In this document: piece by piece, positions 1,107-8,179 of the stretch
Layout: every line of letters begins with the position of its first letter
How positions within the stretch are numbered: position 1 is the first letter of the stretch
IMG/VR virus record: IMGVR_UViG_3300037067_018091
Location: 1-64,000 of that record
Length of the DNA stretch: 64,000 nt
Source of the DNA: a virus
Taxonomy: Duplodnaviria > Caudoviricetes
Reading direction: 5' to 3' (one strand)
Program-made: the position numbers and the translations under genes
The notes under the pieces: model-generated
The model's database searches: none
The model's input: only the letters and a program-made list of their open reading frames with translations
What the model was told of the DNA's origin: nothing

Positions 1107-1187
1107 AGCAGGCGAAGAGTGATGGTTAACTCACCGGTCTCATAAGCCGGTTAACAATTAGGGGTTCGATTCCCCCGCCTGCCTCCA
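1107..1187 (+). tRNA. tRNA with CAT anticodon (Met or Ile2)
   Basis: ccggt-CTCATAA-gccgg anticodon arm, TTCGATT T-loop, encoded CCA; 1:72 mismatch, 9-nt variable region. Confidence 0.8.
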
Positions 1188-1193
1188 AATTTT

Positions 1194-1264
1194 AGGTCGG
1201 TGGTGTAATGGTAACATGGTGGTCTCCAAAATCATTGATGTGCGTTCAAGTCGTACCCGACCTG
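1194..1264 (+). tRNA. tRNA-Trp(CCA)
   Basis: aggtcgg/ccgacct acceptor, loop CTCCAAA. Confidence 0.9.
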
Positions 1265-1273
1265 CTAGTTTAA

Positions 1274-1344
1274 TGGGATGTAGTTTAATGGTAGAACTCT
1301 TGACTCTGACTCAAGGAGTGGAAGTTCAAATCTTTCCGTCCCAG
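1274..1344 (+). tRNA. tRNA-Gln(CTG)
   Basis: tgggatg/cgtccca acceptor, cttga-CTCTGAC-tcaag. Confidence 0.9.
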
Positions 1345-1449
1345 TTGAATATTTAATAGATAAGGGGAAATTATGAAAAAAATAATGTGTAAAATAAAAG
1401 TGATGGCGCGCCCGACAAAACAGGGTGCGATTGTAAAAATAAAAGCTAC

Positions 1450-1534
1450 GCCGGAGTGGCGAAATTGGGAGACGCGCTAGCCCTAGAAGTTAGTGTCGAA
1501 AGGCGTGTTGGTTCAAATCCAATCTCCGGCACCA
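1450..1534 (+). tRNA. tRNA-Leu(TAG), C33 variant
   Basis: gccggag/ctccggc acceptor, ctagc-CCTAGAA-gttag, long variable arm, CCA. Confidence 0.88.
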
Positions 1535-1553
1535 AAATTTTTTTGGAGTAAAA

Positions 1554-1859
1554 ATGAAAATTAAAACTAAATACGTTTGGTATGATGGAGAAAAATGGAA
1601 GGTAGAAAAACTTTTTTCTCCTACGAAATTTGATAATTTTTTATTATTATCTATGGAAGATTCCACACATATTCATGAAGACGACAAAACAATTCCTGTT
1701 AGGATGCAGTTAATTGATGTAGAAAATGAAACTTTTTATTGGGATACTTTAGAAACTCGTAAAATTATGAAACAATTCAATAGTCTCGAAGAGGAACATA
1801 GAAAACAAATTGATAAGTTGCAGACAGCTTTAGTTGATGGTTGGGTGGATAAGGATTAA
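1554..1859 (+). CDS. hypothetical protein
   Basis: ORF 101 aa with GGAG RBS. Confidence 0.75.
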   Translation: MKIKTKYVWYDGEKWKVEKLFSPTKFDNFLLLSMEDSTHIHEDDKTIPVRMQLIDVENETFYWDTLETRKIMKQFNSLEEEHRKQIDKLQTALVDGWVDKD

Positions 1860-1876
1860 TTTGGCACCAAAAATAT

Positions 1877-2104
1877 ATGAATGATAAAGAAAAAGAAGTG
1901 CAGATTGCATTAGGTACAGTTGAGAGGTGTACTGCGTGTGGTGAATTATATAGTACGAATCAACTTGAAGTGGTGCAATCAACTATTGACGAAAAGTTTT
2001 ATTTCATATGTATTAAATGTCTTAATAATGTTTCAACAATTGTGAATGTACGGCGCTGTGATGGAAATGGTATACATGTTCGCCTCAAGAGCGAGATTTT
2101 ATAG
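1877..2104 (+). CDS. small zinc-ribbon protein with ExxxQxALG tag
   Basis: MNDKEKEVQIALGT, CxxC...CxxC; 3' end overlaps tRNA-Leu(CAA). Confidence 0.7.
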   Translation: MNDKEKEVQIALGTVERCTACGELYSTNQLEVVQSTIDEKFYFICIKCLNNVSTIVNVRRCDGNGIHVRLKSEIL

Positions 2105-2125
2105 GTTCGAATCCTATCAGCGCTA
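2052..2125 (+). tRNA. tRNA-Leu(CAA) with short variable loop
   Basis: ggcgctg/cagcgct, ttcgc-CTCAAGA-gcgag, 5-nt variable loop, atagg-TTCGAAT-cctat. Confidence 0.82.
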
Positions 2126-2134
2126 TTAAAATAT

Positions 2135-2218
2135 GGCGGAGTGGTGGAACTGGAATACACACTGGTCTTAAGAACCAGTGCCGGGTACGGCTTGAGGGTT
2201 CAAATCCCTCCTTCGCTA
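2135..2218 (+). tRNA. tRNA-Leu(TAA)
   Basis: ggcggag/cttcgct, ctggt-CTTAAGA-accag, long variable arm. Confidence 0.92.
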
Positions 2219-2230
2219 TAATAAAGTTTT

Positions 2231-2244
2231 TTGTTCTTTGAAAA
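2231..2244 (+). promoter_or_regulatory. boxA-like antitermination element
   Basis: TTGTTCTTTGAAAA matches the rrn boxA form GTTCTTTGAAAA; lies inside a stable-RNA operon. Confidence 0.5.
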
Positions 2245-2252
2245 ATTAATAA

Positions 2253-2324
2253 CTCACCAAACGTGGGGCAACTGCGGAGAACTATTCAAAGAATGTTGCC
2301 TGACTCGTGAATAGTCTTGGTGAG
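2253..2324 (+). ncRNA. candidate pseudoknotted RNA
   Basis: P1 ctcaccaa/ttggtgag, P2 gggcaac/gttgcct, P2-loop actattca pairs 8/8 with tgaatagt. Confidence 0.5.
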
Positions 2325-2337
2325 CAAAATATAAGAT

Positions 2338-2412
2338 CTCTCTGTGGTGTAAGAAAATGGAAACACGCCGGGAAGACCTGGAAACGTGGGAGTCGATGAC
2401 CTACCAGAGGGA
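2338..2412 (+). ncRNA. tRNA-like cloverleaf lacking a normal anticodon loop
   Basis: All four stems pair (ctctctg/cagaggg, gtgt/acac, ccggg/cctgg, gtggg/cctac); loops AAGA (4 nt) and AGTCGATGA (9 nt). Confidence 0.6.
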
Positions 2413-2423
2413 TTTTTAAATTT

Positions 2424-2496
2424 GCCGAGGTAGTGTTAATGGTTAGCACGTCGGGTTGTGGCCCCGGAAAAGTTGGTTCAAATCCAATCCTCGGTA
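2424..2496 (+). tRNA. tRNA-His(GTG)
   Basis: gccgagg/cctcggt, tcggg-TTGTGGC-cccgg; U at -1 and A73. Confidence 0.88.
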
Positions 2497-2504
2497 TTAA
2501 AGCA

Positions 2505-2593
2505 GGTACTATAGAGGTCCACTCTTTAATAATTTTTGTAACCCCCTGTGGTGGGCGCAGAAGCTGCAAAGTTATTAAAGACTCTATAGTACC
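2505..2593 (+). ncRNA. candidate rod-shaped RNA
   Basis: ggtactatagag/ctctatagtacc 12 bp perfect plus about 17-bp inner stem tctttaataattt/aagttattaaaga. Confidence 0.45.
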
Positions 2594-2604
2594 ATTGAAT
2601 AATT

Positions 2605-2679
2605 GCCCCTGTAGTATAATGGATAGTACGATTCGCTACGGACGAATTAATCAGGGTTCAACTCCTTGCAGGGGTACCA
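2605..2679 (+). tRNA. tRNA-Arg(ACG)
   Basis: gcccctg/caggggt, attcg-CTACGGA-cgaat, CCA. Confidence 0.93.
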
Positions 2680-2687
2680 AATTTAAC

Positions 2688-3225
2688 GCCTCTGTAGCTT
2701 AAAAGGTACTATATTAAAATAAACCTTTTAAGCTACTGGAGAAAGTTATGAAAATTTGCCAGGATTGCGGAAAAGAATTTCCATTTAGTATAGTAATTGA
2801 TGGGAAAAAACGTAATATAAGTAATCGAAAATTTTGTTTAGCGTGTTCACCATTTGGTGCGCACAATACCTCTAAACAATCTTTACGTAATAGAAAAAAG
2901 CGGAAAACGCGGGGGGAATATCACCGAAAGTATATGAGAAGAAGAGTAAAATTAATGAAAAACAAGGCAACGGATTATGCAGGTAATGCATGTTTTATTT
3001 GTGGATATTCTAAATGTAAAGATGCGTTAGAATTTCATCATAGGCGGCCAGATCAAAAAAATTTCGGCATTGGTAATAGATATGCATGTAGTTGGAAAGT
3101 TTTAAAATGTGAAATTGATAAATGTGTACTTTTATGTGCGAATTGTCATAGAGAAGTAGAAGCTGGTATAACAAAACTTATATCTGCGGTAGAGGTTGAA
3201 GGTTCAATTCCTTCCAGAGGTACCA
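2688..3225 (+). pseudogene. split tRNA (Arg-like acceptor) interrupted by HNH gene
   Basis: 5' piece gcctctg-ta-gctt-aaaagg (2688-2706); 3' piece gaagg-TTCAATT-ccttc-cagaggt-A-CCA (3198-3225); acceptor strands pair 7/7. Confidence 0.75.
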
Positions 3226-3233
3226 AAAATTAG
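2748..3233 (+). CDS. HNH homing endonuclease
   Basis: CxxC, CFICGY, LEFHH, CVLLCANCHRE motifs; C-terminus runs through tRNA 3' piece. Confidence 0.9.
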   Translation: MKICQDCGKEFPFSIVIDGKKRNISNRKFCLACSPFGAHNTSKQSLRNRKKRKTRGEYHRKYMRRRVKLMKNKATDYAGNACFICGYSKCKDALEFHHRRPDQKNFGIGNRYACSWKVLKCEIDKCVLLCANCHREVEAGITKLISAVEVEGSIPSRGTKN

Positions 3234-3238
3234 ATAAT

Positions 3239-3312
3239 GGGGGTGTCGCCAAATTGGATAAGGCCTTTCGGTTCTAACGAAAAGATTGAGGGTTCGAGTC
3301 CTTCCACCCCTA
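3239..3312 (+). tRNA. tRNA-Arg(TCT)
   Basis: gggggtg/cacccct, tttcg-GTTCTAA-cgaaa. Confidence 0.88.
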
Positions 3313-3333
3313 TAAATATTTATAGAAAAATTT

Positions 3334-3408
3334 TGGCCACTAACTCAATGGTAGAGTGCCGTCCCGTTAAGTCGGAAGTTCAGGGTTCAAATCCCTGGTG
3401 GCCAGCCA
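3334..3408 (+). tRNA. tRNA-Asn(GTT), C33 variant
   Basis: tggccac/gtggcca, ccgtc-CCGTTAA-gtcgg, G73, CCA. Confidence 0.88.
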
Positions 3409-3413
3409 AATTA

Positions 3414-3490
3414 CGGGGTGTGGCGCAGCCTGGTAGCGCACTTGTTTTGGGAACAAGTAGTCGAAGGTTCAAATCCTTTCATCCCGACCA
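3414..3490 (+). tRNA. tRNA-Pro(TGG)
   Basis: cggggtg/catcccg, cttgt-TTTGGGA-acaag, CCA. Confidence 0.93.
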
Positions 3491-3497
3491 AATTAAT

Positions 3498-3581
3498 GTG
3501 TTGGTGGCAGAGTGGTCGATTGCACCTGACTGTAGATCAGGACTTTAGGGCGCGGTGGTTCGAATCCATCCCAACACACCA
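3498..3581 (+). tRNA. tRNA-Tyr(GTA)
   Basis: gtgttgg/ccaacac, cctga-CTGTAGA-tcagg, CCA. Confidence 0.92.
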
Positions 3582-3606
3582 AATTTTTTATAAAGAGGTA
3601 TAAATA

Positions 3607-4170
3607 ATGCGTTCTTGTGATATGATGGTTGATTTAGAAACATTGGGCATGCCTCCTGATGGTATTATTGTTTCAATTGCGTGCGTTCCATTTGATCCGG
3701 AAGATGGAATTATTGATGAAGGTAAACGATGGAATATAACAATTGATTCTAATATTGCAGAAGGAAGAAAATTTACTCCTCAAACAGTTGAATGGTGGTT
3801 AAAGCAATCTAAAGAGGCACAAGAATCTCTTTTTGATATTGAACCACAACCTCTTGTAAATGTATTACAAGAATTTTGTGAATATGTACAAAAACATCTA
3901 GGAAAGAAAAGAAGTGTTTGGGTAAATGGTGCATCTTTTGATTTTATACTTTTAAAAGATGCTTTGATTAAAGCAAATATAAAAATTCCTTGGCATTTTA
4001 GACAAGAAAGTTGCATGAGGGCACTTTTACGTATTGGTAGATCTTTTGAGATAGAATACAAAAAGTATTCAGATGAAAATAAAGGAATCGCCCATAATGC
4101 ATTGGATGATTGTATAATACAGGCAAGATATATTATAGATTTTATAAAAATTATGAGGAAGGTTGACTGA
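3607..4170 (+). CDS. DEDDh 3'-5' exoribonuclease (Rv2179c/RNase AS-like)
   Basis: MVDLETLG, WW, WVNGASFD, HNALDD motifs. Confidence 0.88.
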   Translation: MRSCDMMVDLETLGMPPDGIIVSIACVPFDPEDGIIDEGKRWNITIDSNIAEGRKFTPQTVEWWLKQSKEAQESLFDIEPQPLVNVLQEFCEYVQKHLGKKRSVWVNGASFDFILLKDALIKANIKIPWHFRQESCMRALLRIGRSFEIEYKKYSDENKGIAHNALDDCIIQARYIIDFIKIMRKVD

Positions 4171-4243
4171 TCGGTAAAGTACCCGGTTGCTACCCGGAGG
4201 TCGGCCCGCAAGGGCTGAGAGGGTTCAATTCCTTCACCTTCCG
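4157..4243 (+). tRNA. tRNA-Ser(GCT)
   Basis: ggaaggt/accttcc, loop TTGCTAC, long variable arm, G73. Confidence 0.88.
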
Positions 4244-4252
4244 CTTAAAATT

Positions 4253-4426
4253 ATGACTAAAAAAGAATTTAACATTCAAAAATCTTTAGGATTAATTAAA
4301 TGTTGTATTTGTAAAACAAGTGAAATTGAATATAAGGAATTAGTAGTATTGGAAGCATTTGGTACGCCGCATACTGAGATAGTATGCGGGAAATGCCGTA
4401 ACGATATTTTATTAAAGGCAAAATAA
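4253..4426 (+). CDS. small zinc-ribbon protein with ExxxQxSLG tag
   Basis: MTKKEFNIQKSLGLIKCCICK...CGKC; ATG 4253 chosen because the longer track ORF starts inside tRNA-Ser. Confidence 0.7.
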   Translation: MTKKEFNIQKSLGLIKCCICKTSEIEYKELVVLEAFGTPHTEIVCGKCRNDILLKAK

Positions 4427-4428
4427 AC

Positions 4429-4503
4429 GGCGCTATCGTCTAATGGTTAGGACATGAGACCTTCAATCTTAAAATTCGGGTTCGATTCCCGGTAGCGCCA
4501 CCA
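4429..4503 (+). tRNA. tRNA-Glu(TTC), C33 variant
   Basis: ggcgcta/tagcgcc, tgaga-CCTTCAA-tctta, CCA. Confidence 0.88.
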
Positions 4504-4508
4504 AATAT

Positions 4509-4580
4509 GCCGCTTTAGCTTAACGGTAAAGCCACCGCCCTGTAAGCGGTAAGATCCCAGTTCAAATCTGAGAGGCGGCT
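4509..4580 (+). tRNA. tRNA-Thr(TGT), C33 variant
   Basis: gccgctt/aggcggc, accgc-CCTGTAA-gcggt. Confidence 0.86.
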
Positions 4581-4666
4581 TTAAATAAACGGGGTACAAC
4601 GGACGAGGCTTAGGCGGGTAATCAATCCTGGTGGGAAGCGTGCGGTTGACCAACCCCAAAAATTTT

Positions 4667-4741
4667 GCGGGTAAAGTGTTGATGGGTGCACATCAGCCTT
4701 CCAAGCTGAGAGAAAGGGTTCAAATCCCTTTACCCGCTCCA
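4667..4741 (+). tRNA. tRNA-Gly(TCC)
   Basis: gcgggta/tacccgc, tcagc-CTTCCAA-gctga, U73, CCA. Confidence 0.93.
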
Positions 4742-4755
4742 AAACATGGTGAACT

Positions 4756-5112
4756 ATGGAAAATGAAAAGAAGAAACAACGAGAACTTTTATTTAGTATT
4801 TCAAAAAAAGATTTTGAAATACAAACATTCCGCGCAGGTGGAAAAGGTGGGCAACATCAAAATAAAACAGAGACGGGTGTTAGAATAATTCATAAAGCTT
4901 CTGGTGCAAGAGGCGAAGCACGGGATTCTCGTAGTCAGCATATAAATCGTAAAAATGCTTTTAATCGTCTTGTTGAATCTTCTAAATTTCAAGCATGGTT
5001 TAAAATTGAAGTTGCCCGTAGATTAGGTACATTGAAACAATTAGAACAGGATGCGGAACGATGGGTTGATGCCCAAATGAAAAGTGAAAATTTAAAAATT
5101 GAAAATATTTAA
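4756..5112 (+). CDS. class I release-factor-like peptidyl-tRNA hydrolase domain protein (ArfB/PrfH-like)
   Basis: FRAGGKGGQHQNKTETGVRIIH...RSQHINRKNAFNRL, RF-1 GGQ domain only. Confidence 0.9.
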   Translation: MENEKKKQRELLFSISKKDFEIQTFRAGGKGGQHQNKTETGVRIIHKASGARGEARDSRSQHINRKNAFNRLVESSKFQAWFKIEVARRLGTLKQLEQDAERWVDAQMKSENLKIENI

Positions 5113-5115
5113 TGT

Positions 5116-5415
5116 ATGACGAATAAAGAAAGACAAGTCCAGAAAGCGTTGGGCACCCTTTCAATTAAAGGGTGGTTACAAGAAAAAGGAATTGTTTTAC
5201 GTGAAAAATGGTGGTATTTCCCTTTAAAAAAATCTACACCGGCAGACAATAAAAATGTTGTAATCATAAATAATCAAAAGTATTATAAAGTTGCAGATGA
5301 ATACATTGATCAATTTGTTTTTCCTATTTCAAGTGTAAATGAAGTAATCGCAGAACAAGTAATTGAATCTGTATATTGGAGTATAAGTATTGAAAATGGT
5401 TCAAATATTTGTTAA
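5116..5415 (+). CDS. hypothetical protein with ExxxQxALG tag
   Basis: MTNKERQVQKALGT. Confidence 0.75.
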   Translation: MTNKERQVQKALGTLSIKGWLQEKGIVLREKWWYFPLKKSTPADNKNVVIINNQKYYKVADEYIDQFVFPISSVNEVIAEQVIESVYWSISIENGSNIC

Positions 5416-5475
5416 AATTCGCGCCAAATATTTTTAAAAATTTGTATAAATAATAAAGAGCGTGTTTTAAAATGA

Positions 5476-5546
5476 TGGGGTGTGGTGAAATGGTATCACA
5501 TATGACTTTGGATCATAATTCGGAGGTTCGACTCCTCCCACCCCAG
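5476..5546 (+). tRNA. tRNA-Gln(TTG)
   Basis: tggggtg/cacccca, tatga-CTTTGGA-tcata. Confidence 0.92.
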
Positions 5547-5568
5547 CTTAATGTGGAAGGAGATTTAA

Positions 5569-5910
5569 GTGAAAACGAAGTTTAGTCATCTACGTATGAA
5601 GGGACAATTAGTTGCTACAATCGCTTTCAAAGAAGTGGGCGAGCATGCTGTGTATTATGGAATTGCAGTTGTATCAAAAAATGAATCTCAGGTTTCATAT
5701 AAAAAAGGTCGTAGGATTGCAGAGGGGCGTTGCAATAAAGCATTTGAACTTGAAGATTACCCGATTGAATGGCAAGAGTACGAAGGCGTCATCCCGGCTT
5801 CAAATGATATTATAGAAATTTTGAAAGCGCGGGGATTAGTTAAGTTTGGAGAGTGTTCTTCACAAGCTTTTAAAGACTGTATTCAAGAACTTCGAAATTT
5901 AGGGTTTTAA
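5569..5910 (+). CDS. hypothetical protein
   Basis: GTG start with AAGGAG RBS, 113 aa. Confidence 0.75.
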   Translation: MKTKFSHLRMKGQLVATIAFKEVGEHAVYYGIAVVSKNESQVSYKKGRRIAEGRCNKAFELEDYPIEWQEYEGVIPASNDIIEILKARGLVKFGECSSQAFKDCIQELRNLGF

Positions 5911-5917
5911 TTTAAAG

Positions 5918-5991
5918 GCGGGAGCAGCTTGTTTGGATCGAGCAATCGCCCTACGCGCGAAAGGTAGTAGGTTCGACTCCTACCTCCCGCA
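5918..5991 (+). tRNA. tRNA-Val(TAC), C33 variant
   Basis: gcgggag/ctcccgc, tcgc-CCTACGC-gcga, gtagg-TTCGACT-cctac. Confidence 0.86.
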
Positions 5992-5997
5992 TTTTAT

Positions 5998-6348
5998 ATG
6001 ACTGAAGAAGAAGAAAAAATACAAGCGGCATTAGGTACTGTATTTACATGCTGCTTTTGTGAAAAAATTAAACCCACTTCTGAACAGTATCAATTTGATT
6101 ACGGTGATACTGCTGTGACGTGTTGTAAAGATTGTTTTACATCTACAGCGGAGGCATTATTTCCGGATAGTCGTTCTTTTAGTTATAGTACGAAAAAACT
6201 CCAAAATAATGGGGGTGTAGTTCAGTTGATATGGGGCGCGAACAAGGGTTCAGGACATCCTTGCACGGTGACCTCGCCGGGGGCGGTACCCGGGCGCTCC
6301 ACCAATTTTAGATTATGGAGGATTTGCAATTTATTTGAACTATATTAA
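5998..6348 (+). CDS. zinc-ribbon protein with ExxxQxALG tag, reading through tRNA-Ala
   Basis: MTEEEEKIQAALGT, CCFC...CCKDC; C-terminal part is encoded by tRNA sequence. Confidence 0.65.
   Translation: MTEEEEKIQAALGTVFTCCFCEKIKPTSEQYQFDYGDTAVTCCKDCFTSTAEALFPDSRSFSYSTKKLQNNGGVVQLIWGANKGSGHPCTVTSPGAVPGRSTNFRLWRICNLFELY
6233..6304 (+). tRNA. non-canonical tRNA-Ala(TGC)
   Basis: ggggcgc/gcgctcc with G3:U70, A73, CCA; catc-CTTGCAC-ggtg anticodon arm; T-loop GGCGGTA; reduced D arm. Confidence 0.7.
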
Positions 6349-6385
6349 GTTATTGAATTTAATATAGATTTGAAAGGGATTGCAA

Positions 6386-6955
6386 ATGATTGAAGTTGTA
6401 GAAAAATATGGGCGTAAGCGAAAGTGTAAGAAATTAGTTTGTGAACAGTGTAATGAAGAATTTTGGAAACCTGTTCCGTTAATTCGGGATCAAAAACATC
6501 ATTTTTGTTCAAAACAGTGCGCAGATACATTCAAAAAAAGTTTTAGAACAATACATATATGTGCGAATTGTGGTAAAGAATTTTTACTCAATGCGCATCG
6601 AACAAATAAAAAGAATGCGACCGTGTATAGATTTTGTAGTAGGGGCTGTAAGGATAATGCGCAGCGACTTGATGGTTCTTGTCCTGAAATAAGACCATCA
6701 CATTATAAAAGTGGTGAATGTGTTTATCGAAAAAGAGCTTTTGAATATTATTTACATAAATGTGCATATTGTGGATATAATGAAATTGTAGATATATTAC
6801 AAGTTCATCATTTAGATAGAAATCGTTTAAATGGGTGTATAACAAATTTGATGATCCTTTGTCCTACATGTCATGCAATTCCTACAAAAGGTCTTGGAGA
6901 GTTTAAGTGGGAAGGTAAAAAGTGTGTTTTAGTTATGAAAGAAAAAGAAAAATGA
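6386..6955 (+). CDS. HNH homing endonuclease with zinc-binding repeats
   Basis: CEQC..FCSKQC, CANC..FCSRGC, CAYCGY, LQVHH, NLMILCPTCH; ATG 6386 after AAAGGG. Confidence 0.88.
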   Translation: MIEVVEKYGRKRKCKKLVCEQCNEEFWKPVPLIRDQKHHFCSKQCADTFKKSFRTIHICANCGKEFLLNAHRTNKKNATVYRFCSRGCKDNAQRLDGSCPEIRPSHYKSGECVYRKRAFEYYLHKCAYCGYNEIVDILQVHHLDRNRLNGCITNLMILCPTCHAIPTKGLGEFKWEGKKCVLVMKEKEK

Positions 6956-7392
6956 AAATTGCTCCATCTATATACACTGATTGGATAAATATTCATCCAA
7001 AATTAAATTTTGCATCATTCTTAATTGAATTTAGATCAACTATTAATGGAAGATATTTATATTGTCCTAATAATCATTATATTATTCAAGCTACTAACAA
7101 TATATTACCTCCTTTAGCATTACGATTTTTGGTGAAAGATTCTATATATCAATCTAGACCTACTACTGCAGAAGTAGTTTTTGTAAATAGTCTTTTTTGG
7201 TGGCGAAATGGTACTATTTATAAACAATTTCGATTTAGTGATATTATACGACAATATGATAAAATAATTATTTGGAGTTTTAATATTCCTAAAATTGATA
7301 TTAATTTTATTAAAAATAATTGTTTACAGTTATTTTCTGGTAGTATATCTAATATACGTTATAATCGGCTGCAATTAACTATTGAGGCGTAA
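6952..7392 (+). CDS. hypothetical protein
   Basis: ATG overlapping HNH stop; about 146 aa. Confidence 0.65.
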   Translation: MKIAPSIYTDWINIHPKLNFASFLIEFRSTINGRYLYCPNNHYIIQATNNILPPLALRFLVKDSIYQSRPTTAEVVFVNSLFWWRNGTIYKQFRFSDIIRQYDKIIIWSFNIPKIDINFIKNNCLQLFSGSISNIRYNRLQLTIEA

Positions 7393-7394
7393 TA

Positions 7395-7766
7395 ATGAAT
7401 ATTTGGACAATTGCCGGAATTATTGGACTTGGAATTCCTATTGTTTATGAAAAAGCACGTAGATTGTTATATTATTGTATTCCAGATTGGTGTCTTTATT
7501 CAATTCAATGTAAATGGTATGCTTTTCGAATATGGAATATAGATAAAGGGGGCGCACAAATCCCTTCTCCTGGCGGCCATCAATTTTATCAAATTATAAC
7601 TTTTCATAAGGGGAGTTATTGTGCAAATTGGTTGTGTTTAAAATTTCAAATTTTTATATTATGGACATATTCGTATAAAATTTTGCGGTGGATTCGTATT
7701 AAAGATTTATTACCGCAAGTAATATTTAAATGGAAAAAATGTCTTGAGAAAAAATGGAGAAATTAG
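7395..7766 (+). CDS. hypothetical, possibly membrane-associated protein
   Basis: hydrophobic N-terminus MNIWTIAGIIGLGIPIVY. Confidence 0.65.
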   Translation: MNIWTIAGIIGLGIPIVYEKARRLLYYCIPDWCLYSIQCKWYAFRIWNIDKGGAQIPSPGGHQFYQIITFHKGSYCANWLCLKFQIFILWTYSYKILRWIRIKDLLPQVIFKWKKCLEKKWRN

Positions 7767-7800
7767 GGTTTGAGCCCCTCCACCTCCACCAAATTTAATT

Positions 7801-7825
7801 AAAAGCCCCGTTCGCGGGGCTTTTT
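7801..7825 (+). terminator. intrinsic terminator ending tRNA array
   Basis: aaaagccccg-TTCG-cggggctttt(t). Confidence 0.9.
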
Positions 7826-7864
7826 ATGCATTTATTTTGAGGTATTTGGGTAAAATATATTAAG

Positions 7865-8179
7865 ATGGTGCAGTTTCATTTAAATGATTGTCATGAACGT
7901 GTTTTATGGAAGTTGTTAACATTTGAAGGCAGTTTTCTTGTGTATTATCCTTCTGCAAAACGAGCCACCACGGTGGGTACTCATTGGTGTTTTGTTATGG
8001 AGAATAATTCAGAATTGGGTGAAATTATACAAGATAATGTTTGTGATGAATTAATAAAACATGGGTTTTTAGAAGCAGATTTGGATGAAAAAGAACATGA
8101 AGTGCAAACTGCATTAGGCACCCAAATAGGTCGAGTATTTAAATTATCTAATTCATTGAAAAATATTTTAAAAAGGTGA
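7865..8179 (+). CDS. hypothetical protein with internal ExxxQxALG tag
   Basis: DEKEHEVQTALGT near C-terminus. Confidence 0.75.
   Translation: MVQFHLNDCHERVLWKLLTFEGSFLVYYPSAKRATTVGTHWCFVMENNSELGEIIQDNVCDELIKHGFLEADLDEKEHEVQTALGTQIGRVFKLSNSLKNILKR

Follow-up and report, generated by a model that had tools for sequence, protein, structure and literature searches.

At the 3′ end of a phage transfer RNA (tRNA) array, two pieces that look like the ends of a tRNA-Ala gene enclose a second, structurally different tRNA-Ala gene and a gene for an HNH endonuclease, and the question is how such an arrangement arose. The array lies in the first 64 kb (64,000 nucleotides, hereafter the window) of the 87.7-kb IMG/VR virus record IMGVR_UViG_3300037067_018091 (Caudoviricetes), an entry with 35% G+C and estimated to be 30% complete, and comprises 18 tRNA genes on the plus strand at 1108-5991. 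Alanine is not among them, and no further tRNA-Ala was found in the 87.7-kb record. The broken tRNA-Ala locus forms the 3′ end of this array, just ahead of a strong hairpin terminator (7801-7824). The origin that we consider moderately probable from the sequence comparisons given below is an intronless homing event resembling that of T4 SegB, in which the target tRNA gene would have been destroyed and a substitute supplied. The features of the locus, with their counterparts in L264, a contig of a sister phage, are as follows.

5998-6210, plus strand: small Cys-rich open reading frame (ORF) of the left flank, conserved in L264, its stop codon lost in the window
6211-6231, plus strand: 5′ remnant of the resident canonical tRNA-Ala(UGC), tRNA positions 1-21, equal to L264 5151-5171
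6233-6304, plus strand: intact non-canonical tRNA-Ala(UGC), termed Ala*, recognized by a covariance model of its own family and by covariation
6386-6955, plus strand: HNH endonuclease gene, 189 aa, with matches to Pfam zf-FCS and HNH and to PHROG HNH families
6952-7392, plus strand: ORF2, 146 aa, whose start overlaps the HNH stop codon (ATGA)
7395-7766, plus strand: ORF3, 123 aa by translation, with a hydrophobic N-terminus and the homologues P0146 and P0147
7765-7791 (perhaps from 7756, position 41), plus strand: 3′ remnant of the resident tRNA-Ala, with T arm, CACCTCC, A73 and CCA
7801-7824, no strand assigned: G+C-rich hairpin and T run, terminator of the tRNA operon, its position conserved in L264
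7865-8179, plus strand: 104-aa ORF of the right flank, 79% identical to L264 5357-5668

The two outer pieces are best read as the ends of one canonical tRNA-Ala(UGC) gene, the 3′ piece beginning at 7765 or perhaps at 7756. The 5′ piece reads GGGGGTG-TA-GTTC-AGTTGATA, which corresponds to the acceptor 5′ strand, U8 and A9, the D-stem 5′ strand and the D loop, and 7765-7791 reads AGGG-TTTGAGC-CCCT-C-CACCTCC-A-CCA, which corresponds to the T arm, the acceptor 3′ strand, the discriminator and CCA. Their acceptor strands GGGGGTG/CACCTCC (6211-6217 with the 3′ remnant) pair at 7 of 7 positions and include G3:U70, followed by A73 and CCA. Each piece is single-copy in the window, with 0 chance occurrences expected at up to 3 mismatches. 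The first 18-19 nt at the 5′ end and the last 11 nt at the 3′ end, CACCTCCACCA, are common to the intact phage tRNA-Ala(UGC) genes of three contigs (L123, L141 and L127), the T loop TTTGAGC is also found in the intact tRNA-Ala of L186, and in an nhmmer comparison with a tRNA-Ala profile, 7755-7789 correspond to profile positions 39-74. Both pieces had been described in a sequence-only reading of the stretch, along with the complete tRNA-Ala(UGC), the HNH gene and two ORFs between the outer pieces and the terminator after them; the 5′ piece, which it had given as 18 nt, measures 21 nt and is identical in L264.

That both pieces stem from a single gene is further borne out when positions 1-40 of the tRNA, taken from L264 (5151-5190), are joined to window 7756-7791. 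The product is a 76-nt cloverleaf, called as tRNA-Ala(tgc) by ARAGORN at default settings, whose anticodon stem is TCCGC/GCGGA, closure of this stem using just three window nucleotides (GGA). Since the conserved string AAAAAATGGA recurs where the ORF3 homologue of another contig, L273, comes to its end, the right junction is placed between 7755 and 7765; a junction exactly at 40|41, like the L264 break, had been considered and was dropped for the same reason. The insert thus measures about 1.53 kb (6232-7764), and positions 22 to about 40-49 of the resident tRNA are gone. The T49.C65 mismatch present in the 3′ remnant would fit a crossover within the T arm.

A second break of the same gene is observed in sister phages. 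Contigs L264, L265 and L266, which come from three sequencing runs (ERR14847273, ERR14847261 and ERR14847254), were found through the neighbouring QueE gene (85% identical to the window QueE) and are syntenic with the window, the order of exoribonuclease gene, RF-1-like gene, tRNA-Gln, tRNA-Val, Cys-rich ORF, locus, terminator and 104-aa ORF being kept. At the locus they lack the HNH gene, ORF2, ORF3 and Ala* and retain both flanking genes and the terminator, hence the insert is indeed absent from a related phage. In L264, the 21 nt shared with the window (5151-5171) are continued by GAAC-A-TCCGC-CTTGCAC-GC to give tRNA positions 1-40, the window diverging after 21; position 40 is followed by AAAATTAT and then by an intact tRNA-Ala(UGC) of another type, with the acceptor stem GGGCTGG/CCGGTCC. 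This remnant was assembled identically from the three runs. The window keeps positions 1-21 and about 41/50-76 and L264 keeps positions 1-40, and since each holds a part absent from the other, the resident gene must have been broken at least twice. As the window lacks positions 22-40 and L264 the resident 3′ end, neither allele can stem from the other, and both go back separately to an intact ancestor. This tRNA-Ala gene appears to have been targeted repeatedly by selfish DNA. The expectation in the sequence-only reading that related phages would carry an uninterrupted tRNA-Ala before the same terminator was not borne out, because none was found and L264 represents a second, different replacement allele. 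When the intact resident allele was sought in IMG/VR with an 18-nt 5′ pattern, 32 matches were obtained, none of them with the resident D loop GATAGAAC. In another related phage (L272, 2313-3620), the QueE homologue holds an intein (Pfam Intein_splicing), which is another mobile element in this group.

The gene that follows Ala*, after a spacer of 81 nt with a ribosome-binding site at its end, probably encodes a free-standing homing endonuclease. The predicted protein carries N-terminal zf-FCS zinc fingers (Pfam, 38.9 bits) and a C-terminal HNH domain (21.7 bits, cut-off 21.4) and also matches several PHROG HNH families; H141, H142, N154 and H163, as in the catalytic motif of HNH (beta-beta-alpha-metal) enzymes, are invariant in 23 relatives. 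Its presence or absence among syntenic genomes (it is missing from L264-L266), with no intron reported by Rfam, agrees with a free-standing homing gene. Relatives were collected by a protein search, which gave 22, and by a metagenome scan with the HNH alignment, tRNAs playing no part in the selection, and the 71 loci whose ORF measured 130 aa or more were counted. A tRNA-Ala lies within 150 nt of the HNH gene in 19 of these 71 loci, another tRNA lies by it in 15 (10 different amino acids, none represented by more than 4 loci), and no tRNA is present in 25. Relatives of this HNH protein adjoin tRNA-Ala far more often than any other tRNA. On the tree built with FastTree, 8 changes account for the Ala label as against a shuffled mean of 17, and 0 of 500 shuffles were as low. 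The linkage of the HNH family to tRNA-Ala genes thus holds in unrelated contigs, and in the huge-phage record LR756511, a canonical tRNA-Ala is followed by a homologue 8 nt downstream. In L185, L190 and L192, near-canonical phage tRNA-Ala genes beside this HNH family have T loops without T54 (AGCGAAG, ATCGAAG and ATCGTTC).

HNH genes accompanied by broken tRNA genes, for which the sequence-only reading had suggested a search, recur among these relatives, a truncated tRNA-Ala, an HNH gene and an intact tRNA-Ala of another type being present in four contigs (L179, L187, L204 and L210). The closest HNH relative, with 59% identity and a sister position on the tree with support of 100, is that of L179. 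Here an Ala*-like 5′ half (acceptor, AAGG hairpin and AGGACAAC-CTTGCAA) is cut off just past the anticodon loop and is followed by TATAAATTAT, by an intact canonical tRNA-Ala with the outer acceptor stem of the window (GGGGGTG/CACCTCC) and, 6-10 nt further on, by the HNH gene, so that the locus is the mirror image of the window arrangement. In L187, canonical positions 1-24 precede the HNH gene and a complete tRNA-Ala (Rfam tRNA, 34.9 bits). Canonical positions 1-31 are followed in L210 by the HNH gene and a variant tRNA-Ala (7 of 7 acceptor pairs, G3:U70). The canonical tRNA-Ala of L204 is truncated past the anticodon arm, with the HNH gene and an A+T-rich Ala*-like gene after it. In L198, the end of the HNH gene overlaps an Ala*-like gene (51.6 bits) that has a terminator behind it, the HNH stop codon being among the initial 8 nt of the tRNA-like gene. 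Between thyX and the tRNA-Ala locus of L179 (1390-1650), a stretch of about 250 nt is G+C-rich and apparently structured, with no Rfam match at E <=0.1.

These recurrences bear on the alternative that illegitimate recombination, or module shuffling in a recombination-prone array, brought in a new tRNA-Ala that was kept by selection, for example because altered tRNA arms evade a host tRNA-targeting defence, with the HNH gene as a passive passenger. Replacement or insertion of tRNA-Ala without an HNH gene on site in L264 and L273, the scattered break positions, the abundance of HNH and GIY-YIG genes throughout tRNA arrays and the anti-defence roles that SegB-linked tRNA regions can have, according to a published report (PMC13096335), all speak for such shuffling. 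However, two sister phages suffered separate breaks in one and the same small gene, a broken tRNA-Ala adjoins the same HNH family in at least four unrelated contigs, adjacency of HNH and tRNA-Ala is a clustered trait on the HNH tree, and random insertion would not prefer one of about 20 tRNA species. Shuffling with a passive nuclease is therefore regarded as rather unlikely.

Ala* itself looks like a working gene. This RNA of 72 nt (71% G+C), separated from the 5′ remnant by a single T, has an acceptor stem of 7 bp with G3:U70, A73 and CCA, a D hairpin of 4 bp with an AAGG loop and no 8/9 linker, an anticodon stem of 8 bp (one A.A) with the loop CTTGCAC, and the T arm CCGGG-GGCGGTA-CCCGG. It thus possesses the marks of tRNA-Ala identity (G3:U70, A73, 3′ CCA and a 7-nt anticodon loop with U33 and UGC), and departs from what RF00005 and ARAGORN take as a canonical tRNA in its T loop GGCGGTA and in the 4-nt loop of its D hairpin. 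ARAGORN at default settings called it neither as a tRNA nor as a tmRNA (transfer-messenger RNA), and RF00005 is not among the listed Rfam matches, the best of that clan being alpha_tmRNA with 21.5 bits. The model of its own family, R1, scores it at 89.5 bits.

The sequence-only reading had regarded the inner gene as a recoded isoacceptor. It is no recoded copy of the resident tRNA-Ala and belongs to a widespread non-canonical tRNA-Ala family. Five further viral contigs and eleven genome contigs of alphaproteobacteria (Xanthobacteraceae, Bradyrhizobium and Hyphomicrobiales) were found by pattern scans to share this architecture, giving 17 members, and a 28-nt Ala* 3′ pattern had 0 matches in IMG/VR. 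All are 72 nt long and follow one plan, with a 7-bp acceptor stem directly joined to a 4-bp hairpin with AAGG loop, then a stem of 7-8 bp with CUUGCA(A/C), two nucleotides, a 5-bp T stem with the loop NGCGKTA, and ACCA. In an alignment of 13 sequences (A1), 95.8% of cells are paired as against 30-47% with partners slid by 1-3 columns, and compensatory change occurs at 10 pairs; 0 of 500 shuffles reach the observed values, and four helices are backed by covariation. The scan pattern constrained the D and anticodon region only, so the way in which the sequences were retrieved has no bearing on the covariation seen in the acceptor and T stems. Single-sequence minimum free energy folding was uninformative (z-scores near 0), and hence covariation was used. 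G3:U70 is present in 13 of 13 aligned members, and the anticodon loop positions are invariant. The family is conserved, unannotated, and missed by ARAGORN and the Rfam tRNA model.

In 16 arrays, Ala* lies 4-8 nt from adjacent tRNAs, mostly between tRNA-Phe and tRNA-Asn, and these arrays hold one canonical tRNA-Ala altogether. In view of this near-absence, Ala* is very probably the alanine tRNA of its arrays, its charging and decoding being predicted from this context. Close relatives of the window phage lack Ala*, which fits its horizontal acquisition.

In the array of one Ala* member, in L162 (8190-8270), a second non-canonical tRNA-like gene has the acceptor stem GCGGACG/CGTCCGC, the loop CTTCCAA (UCC, Gly) and the T arm CCGGG-GGCGGCA-CCCGG, with no ARAGORN call; the odd type of T loop is therefore not confined to tRNA-Ala. 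In L173 (1379-1483), an Ala* member contains a hairpin insertion of about 33 nt in the T loop. Ala* also occurs in a G+C-rich phage array of L020 (680-1240, minus strand) with a GIY-YIG-like ORF downstream, and in a related G+C-rich array of L162 (6705-7343), where an HNH gene lies on the opposite strand upstream of Ala*, on the opposite side from the L020 nuclease.

The composition of Ala* raises the alternative of a tag-less tmRNA-like molecule consisting of the tRNA-like domain only, which would be charged with alanine and act as a partner of SmpB or a decoy, so that no true tRNA-Ala replacement would have occurred. The 17-nt T arm equals the alphaproteobacterial tmRNA consensus, which accounts for the Rfam match, the D region is reduced as in the tRNA-like domains of tmRNA, and alanine identity is common to tmRNA. 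However, the 7-nt loop with U33 and UGC is invariant in the family, although tmRNA has no anticodon. Ala* moreover occupies the alanine slot of arrays otherwise without tRNA-Ala, a permuted partner and a tag frame are absent, and the alpha_tmRNA score of 21.5 bits compares with a gathering score of 50, only model positions 92-156 being aligned. A function of this kind is accordingly judged improbable. A decayed two-piece tmRNA (RF01849) was likewise rejected on account of the sub-threshold score, a proposed 5′ partner that lies inside the HNH ORF and pairs poorly, and the lack of a tmRNA call by ARAGORN at default settings.

The junctions address two further alternatives. The first is an integrase-type island at a tRNA attachment (att) site or an assembly chimera between strains. 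It recalls that tRNA 3′ ends are classic att sites and that L273 has three direct copies of the tRNA-Ala 3′ end, and the window allele is known from two contigs only. Yet no integrase gene, direct repeat at the junctions or restored tRNA is present within 6211-7791, the position 6231/6232 is devoid of a repeat that could mislead an assembler, and the L264-type remnant is identical in assemblies of three runs, all of which renders an island or a chimera very improbable. The second takes the outer pieces for exons of a tRNA-Ala gene that is split or contains an intron, from which splicing or assembly would yield a functional tRNA. The acceptor halves do pair 7/7 with an encoded CCA, and loosened ARAGORN settings propose intron-containing tRNAs in the region, but neither piece contains positions 22 to about 40 (the 3′ strand of the D stem, and the anticodon loop with the 5′ strand of its stem), Rfam reports no group I or II intron, and the interval is filled by three coupled ORFs and a tRNA, so that this reading is hardly credible. 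A group I intron within the tRNA gene was also set aside, the exons being incomplete and no Rfam intron family matching at E <=10, and the loosened ARAGORN calls of tRNA, tmRNA and intron in the region, being mutually contradictory, were disregarded. The arrangement is thus unlike both intron homing and att-site integration, as the sequence-only reading had maintained.

The simplest account, homing with destruction of the target and supply of a substitute, would proceed as follows. The last gene of the phage tRNA operon would formerly have been a canonical tRNA-Ala(UGC), and a break within it, between the D loop and the T stem, would have been repaired with foreign DNA. The break may have been made by the window HNH enzyme or a close relative, in that an HNH nuclease living beside a tRNA-Ala would break a tRNA-Ala gene of the type absent from its own cassette. 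Donor-templated repair would then copy in the nuclease gene together with the donor's own tRNA-Ala, and missing homology on one side would lead to an illegitimate join that leaves a 5′ remnant of variable length (21, 24, 31 or about 39-40 nt). As the insertion destroys the target gene, the disrupted site of the carrier allele would no longer be cleavable, alanine decoding would be kept through the imported Ala*, and the two tRNA remnants could serve as homology arms for further spread. It is plausible that the Ala* gene is immune to the HNH enzyme, since the canonical T-loop motif is missing from it and none of its stems equals that of the resident gene.

Several observations weigh against this proposal. 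The junction positions scatter among the cases (21, 24, 31, about 39-41 and about 45), and therefore no single cut site emerges. The match of the right junction to the L264 break at 40|41 amounts to 3 nt (GGA), which are conserved in the L273 ORF3 homologue too. No relative with an intact resident gene was found either by the IMG/VR pattern or among the relatives obtained through QueE, which carry other alleles. The L264 replacement allele has no HNH gene at the locus, and L273 has ORF2-ORF3 and a tRNA-Ala 3′ piece without HNH, so that an HNH gene is not always physically part of such events. The Pfam HNH score is barely over its cut-off (21.7 vs 21.4), deep nodes of the HNH tree are weakly supported, and a record only about 30% complete leaves room for a further tRNA-Ala elsewhere in the genome. 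What stands of the homing element proposed by the sequence-only reading is the broken gene, the absence of the insert from the sister phage, the independent recurrence and the linkage of HNH to tRNA-Ala; the recoded copy and the empty allele do not.

It is possible, if rather doubtful, that an arms race operates more generally in phage arrays, in which tRNA-Ala-specific homing nucleases would travel with an immune, remodelled tRNA-Ala that kills and replaces the resident. Since alanine identity needs little beyond G3:U70, tRNA-Ala could be rebuilt almost freely, and cassettes would for this reason carry remodelled versions of it, such as Ala*, in which the D loop has 4 nt, the anticodon stem 8 bp and the T loop, of the tmRNA type, no GTTCRANYC motif.

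The stop codon of ORF3 (TAG, 7764-7766) sits within the T stem of the 3′ tRNA remnant. In L273, an intact type-B tRNA-Ala, with a 1-nt difference from that of L264, is followed by ORF2-like and ORF3-like genes. There, the TAG of the ORF3-like gene likewise falls inside the T stem of a tRNA-Ala 3′ remnant, with a type-B acceptor strand, and the HNH gene is absent between the tRNA-Ala and this remnant. ORF2 and ORF3 with a tRNA-Ala 3′ piece thus form a recurring unit, and since L273 has this unit without HNH, the window cassette is composite. ORF2 weakly matches the ORF ahead of the L273 ORF3 homologue (23% identity, E 9e-4) and is otherwise an orphan, whose only match among 5.8 billion proteins is itself; ORF3 has a few relatives (P0146 and P0147), and ORF2, ORF3 and the small flanking ORFs match no Pfam or PHROG family. 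The Cys-rich ORF of the left flank is 59% identical to L264 4961-5122, which ends 1 nt ahead of the tRNA. In the window, this frame (5998-6348) runs through the tRNA remnant and the entire Ala* gene and encodes 116 aa as against about 62-71 aa. A blastn search of 5900-8100 against GenBank phages gave zero matches, a related-locus search of IMG/VR with the HNH or QueE protein alone returned nothing, and the cassette allele of the window is known from two contigs only.

Elsewhere in the array, the sequence-only reading had pointed to a parallel case at 2688-3225, and this turned out to be real and similar, a tRNA gene being split there by an HNH gene; the interior contains no substitute tRNA. 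The 5′ piece (2688-2708) reads GCCTCTG-TA-GCTT-AAAAGGTA and comprises tRNA positions 1-21, ending at 21 like the tRNA-Ala remnant, and the 3′ piece (3198-3225) consists of the T arm and CAGAGGT-A-CCA. The second HNH gene (2748-3233), of another PHROG family, splits this second tRNA gene, whose acceptor stem resembles that of tRNA-Arg, with a possible GCG anticodon loop at 3184-3190. L264 lacks the whole unit, tRNA-Arg(ACG) and tRNA-Arg(UCU) being 10 nt apart with nothing between. At the left junction, a 14-bp inverted copy of tRNA positions 7-20 (2694-2707 vs 2723-2736) could be a fold-back repair scar. The 3′ piece has no exact match in IMG/VR.

Three G+C-rich islands in the tRNA array (1030-1097, 2352-2413 and 4584-4664; 55-60% vs 35% for the genome) have no tRNA call and may be further unrecognised structured RNAs. 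Among IMG/VR contigs, more than 100 viral ones (L003-L122) contain a permuted tmRNA acceptor piece of alphaproteobacterial type (GGAC-CCGGGGGCGGTACCCGG-CGCCTCCACCA) with an upstream TATAAATA-like box, and some of them a coding-piece start, GGGGGCGAAA, a few nucleotides downstream of it. These acceptor pieces are phage-borne two-piece tmRNAs or att sites.

If the arms race suggested above were real, the cassettes would be selfish elements of a "kill and substitute" kind acting on an RNA gene, and would drive bacterial and phage tRNAs towards non-canonical architectures. In the window, the event has left its footprint, the target tRNA gene being retained in two pieces around the invader, and two ideas become testable, namely that destruction of an RNA gene, with a substitute carried along, can be a way for a nuclease to spread and that such pressure explains strange tRNA shapes. 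As standard tRNA finders miss Ala*, tRNA annotation and estimates of codon supply are affected in phages and in bacterial arrays of the Bradyrhizobium type. How a tRNA that combines a T loop of the tmRNA type with a minimal D arm functions on the bacterial ribosome is a question that this family poses. Elements of the general kind, homing endonucleases at work in phage tRNA clusters, are known. Neither the Ala* family nor HNH-broken tRNA genes were found described in the literature searched, whose incomplete coverage makes this weak evidence of novelty. As far as the searchable literature goes, and with that same reserve, what seems new is the preserved two-piece target, the independent second break in a sister phage with the mirror-image cases, and a non-canonical substitute tRNA from a family missed by standard tools.

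Among known systems, the T5 F-TflI/II genes are HNH-family genes within a phage tRNA cluster and act on tRNA-gene DNA of related phages; to our knowledge, neither a remnant-flanked insertion nor a substitute tRNA has been reported for them. In phage Aeh1, mobE is a free-standing endonuclease gene inside its target gene nrdA, which is left in two pieces whose protein products still cooperate. In contrast, the resident tRNA of the window lacks its anticodon arm and hence cannot work, its function being predicted to be provided by the second gene in the insert. Mitochondrial tRNAs with a reduced D arm have a shrunken D arm and a longer anticodon stem and still decode, but are organellar and served by dedicated translation factors. 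Ala* resembles them in its D arm and anticodon stem, and is bacterial or phage-borne, outside the Rfam tRNA model and the ARAGORN search space. With the tRNA-like domain of the alphaproteobacterial two-piece tmRNA (RF01849), Ala* shares the T arm CCGGGGGCGGUACCCGG, G3:U70, A73, CCA and a reduced D region; unlike it, Ala* is one unpermuted 72-nt piece with a conserved UGC anticodon loop and has no mRNA-like part and no pseudoknots.

The long tRNA arrays of bacteria (L-arrays) are horizontally moving arrays of at least 20 tRNA genes with associated, conserved HNH genes, and the Ala* family resides in such arrays of Xanthobacteraceae and Bradyrhizobium-type genomes; term searches of the L-array report gave neither a non-canonical tRNA-Ala nor broken target genes (PMC8421152). 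Homing nucleases that target tRNA genes and carry neighbouring ones are already known, T4 SegB being an example. This enzyme, whose recognition sequence is the T-loop motif GGTTCRANTCC, cleaves within tRNA genes and thereby promotes inheritance of its own gene along with adjacent tRNA genes (PMC2330249). The same source mentions, by citation, that the HNH endonucleases F-TflI/II lie in the T5 tRNA region. Like the window HNH gene, segB is a free-standing nuclease gene among phage tRNA genes with targets inside them, and its homing in the T-even cluster, which brings in neighbouring tRNA genes and erases recipient markers, can be likened to the window cassette (PMC2330249). However, SegB is a GIY-YIG enzyme that cuts the 3′ ends of many tRNA genes and swaps homologous regions, whereas the window enzyme belongs to the HNH type and is tied to one tRNA species, and unlike with SegB, the target gene in the window is left as two remnants and appears to have been replaced by a structurally unrelated isoacceptor.

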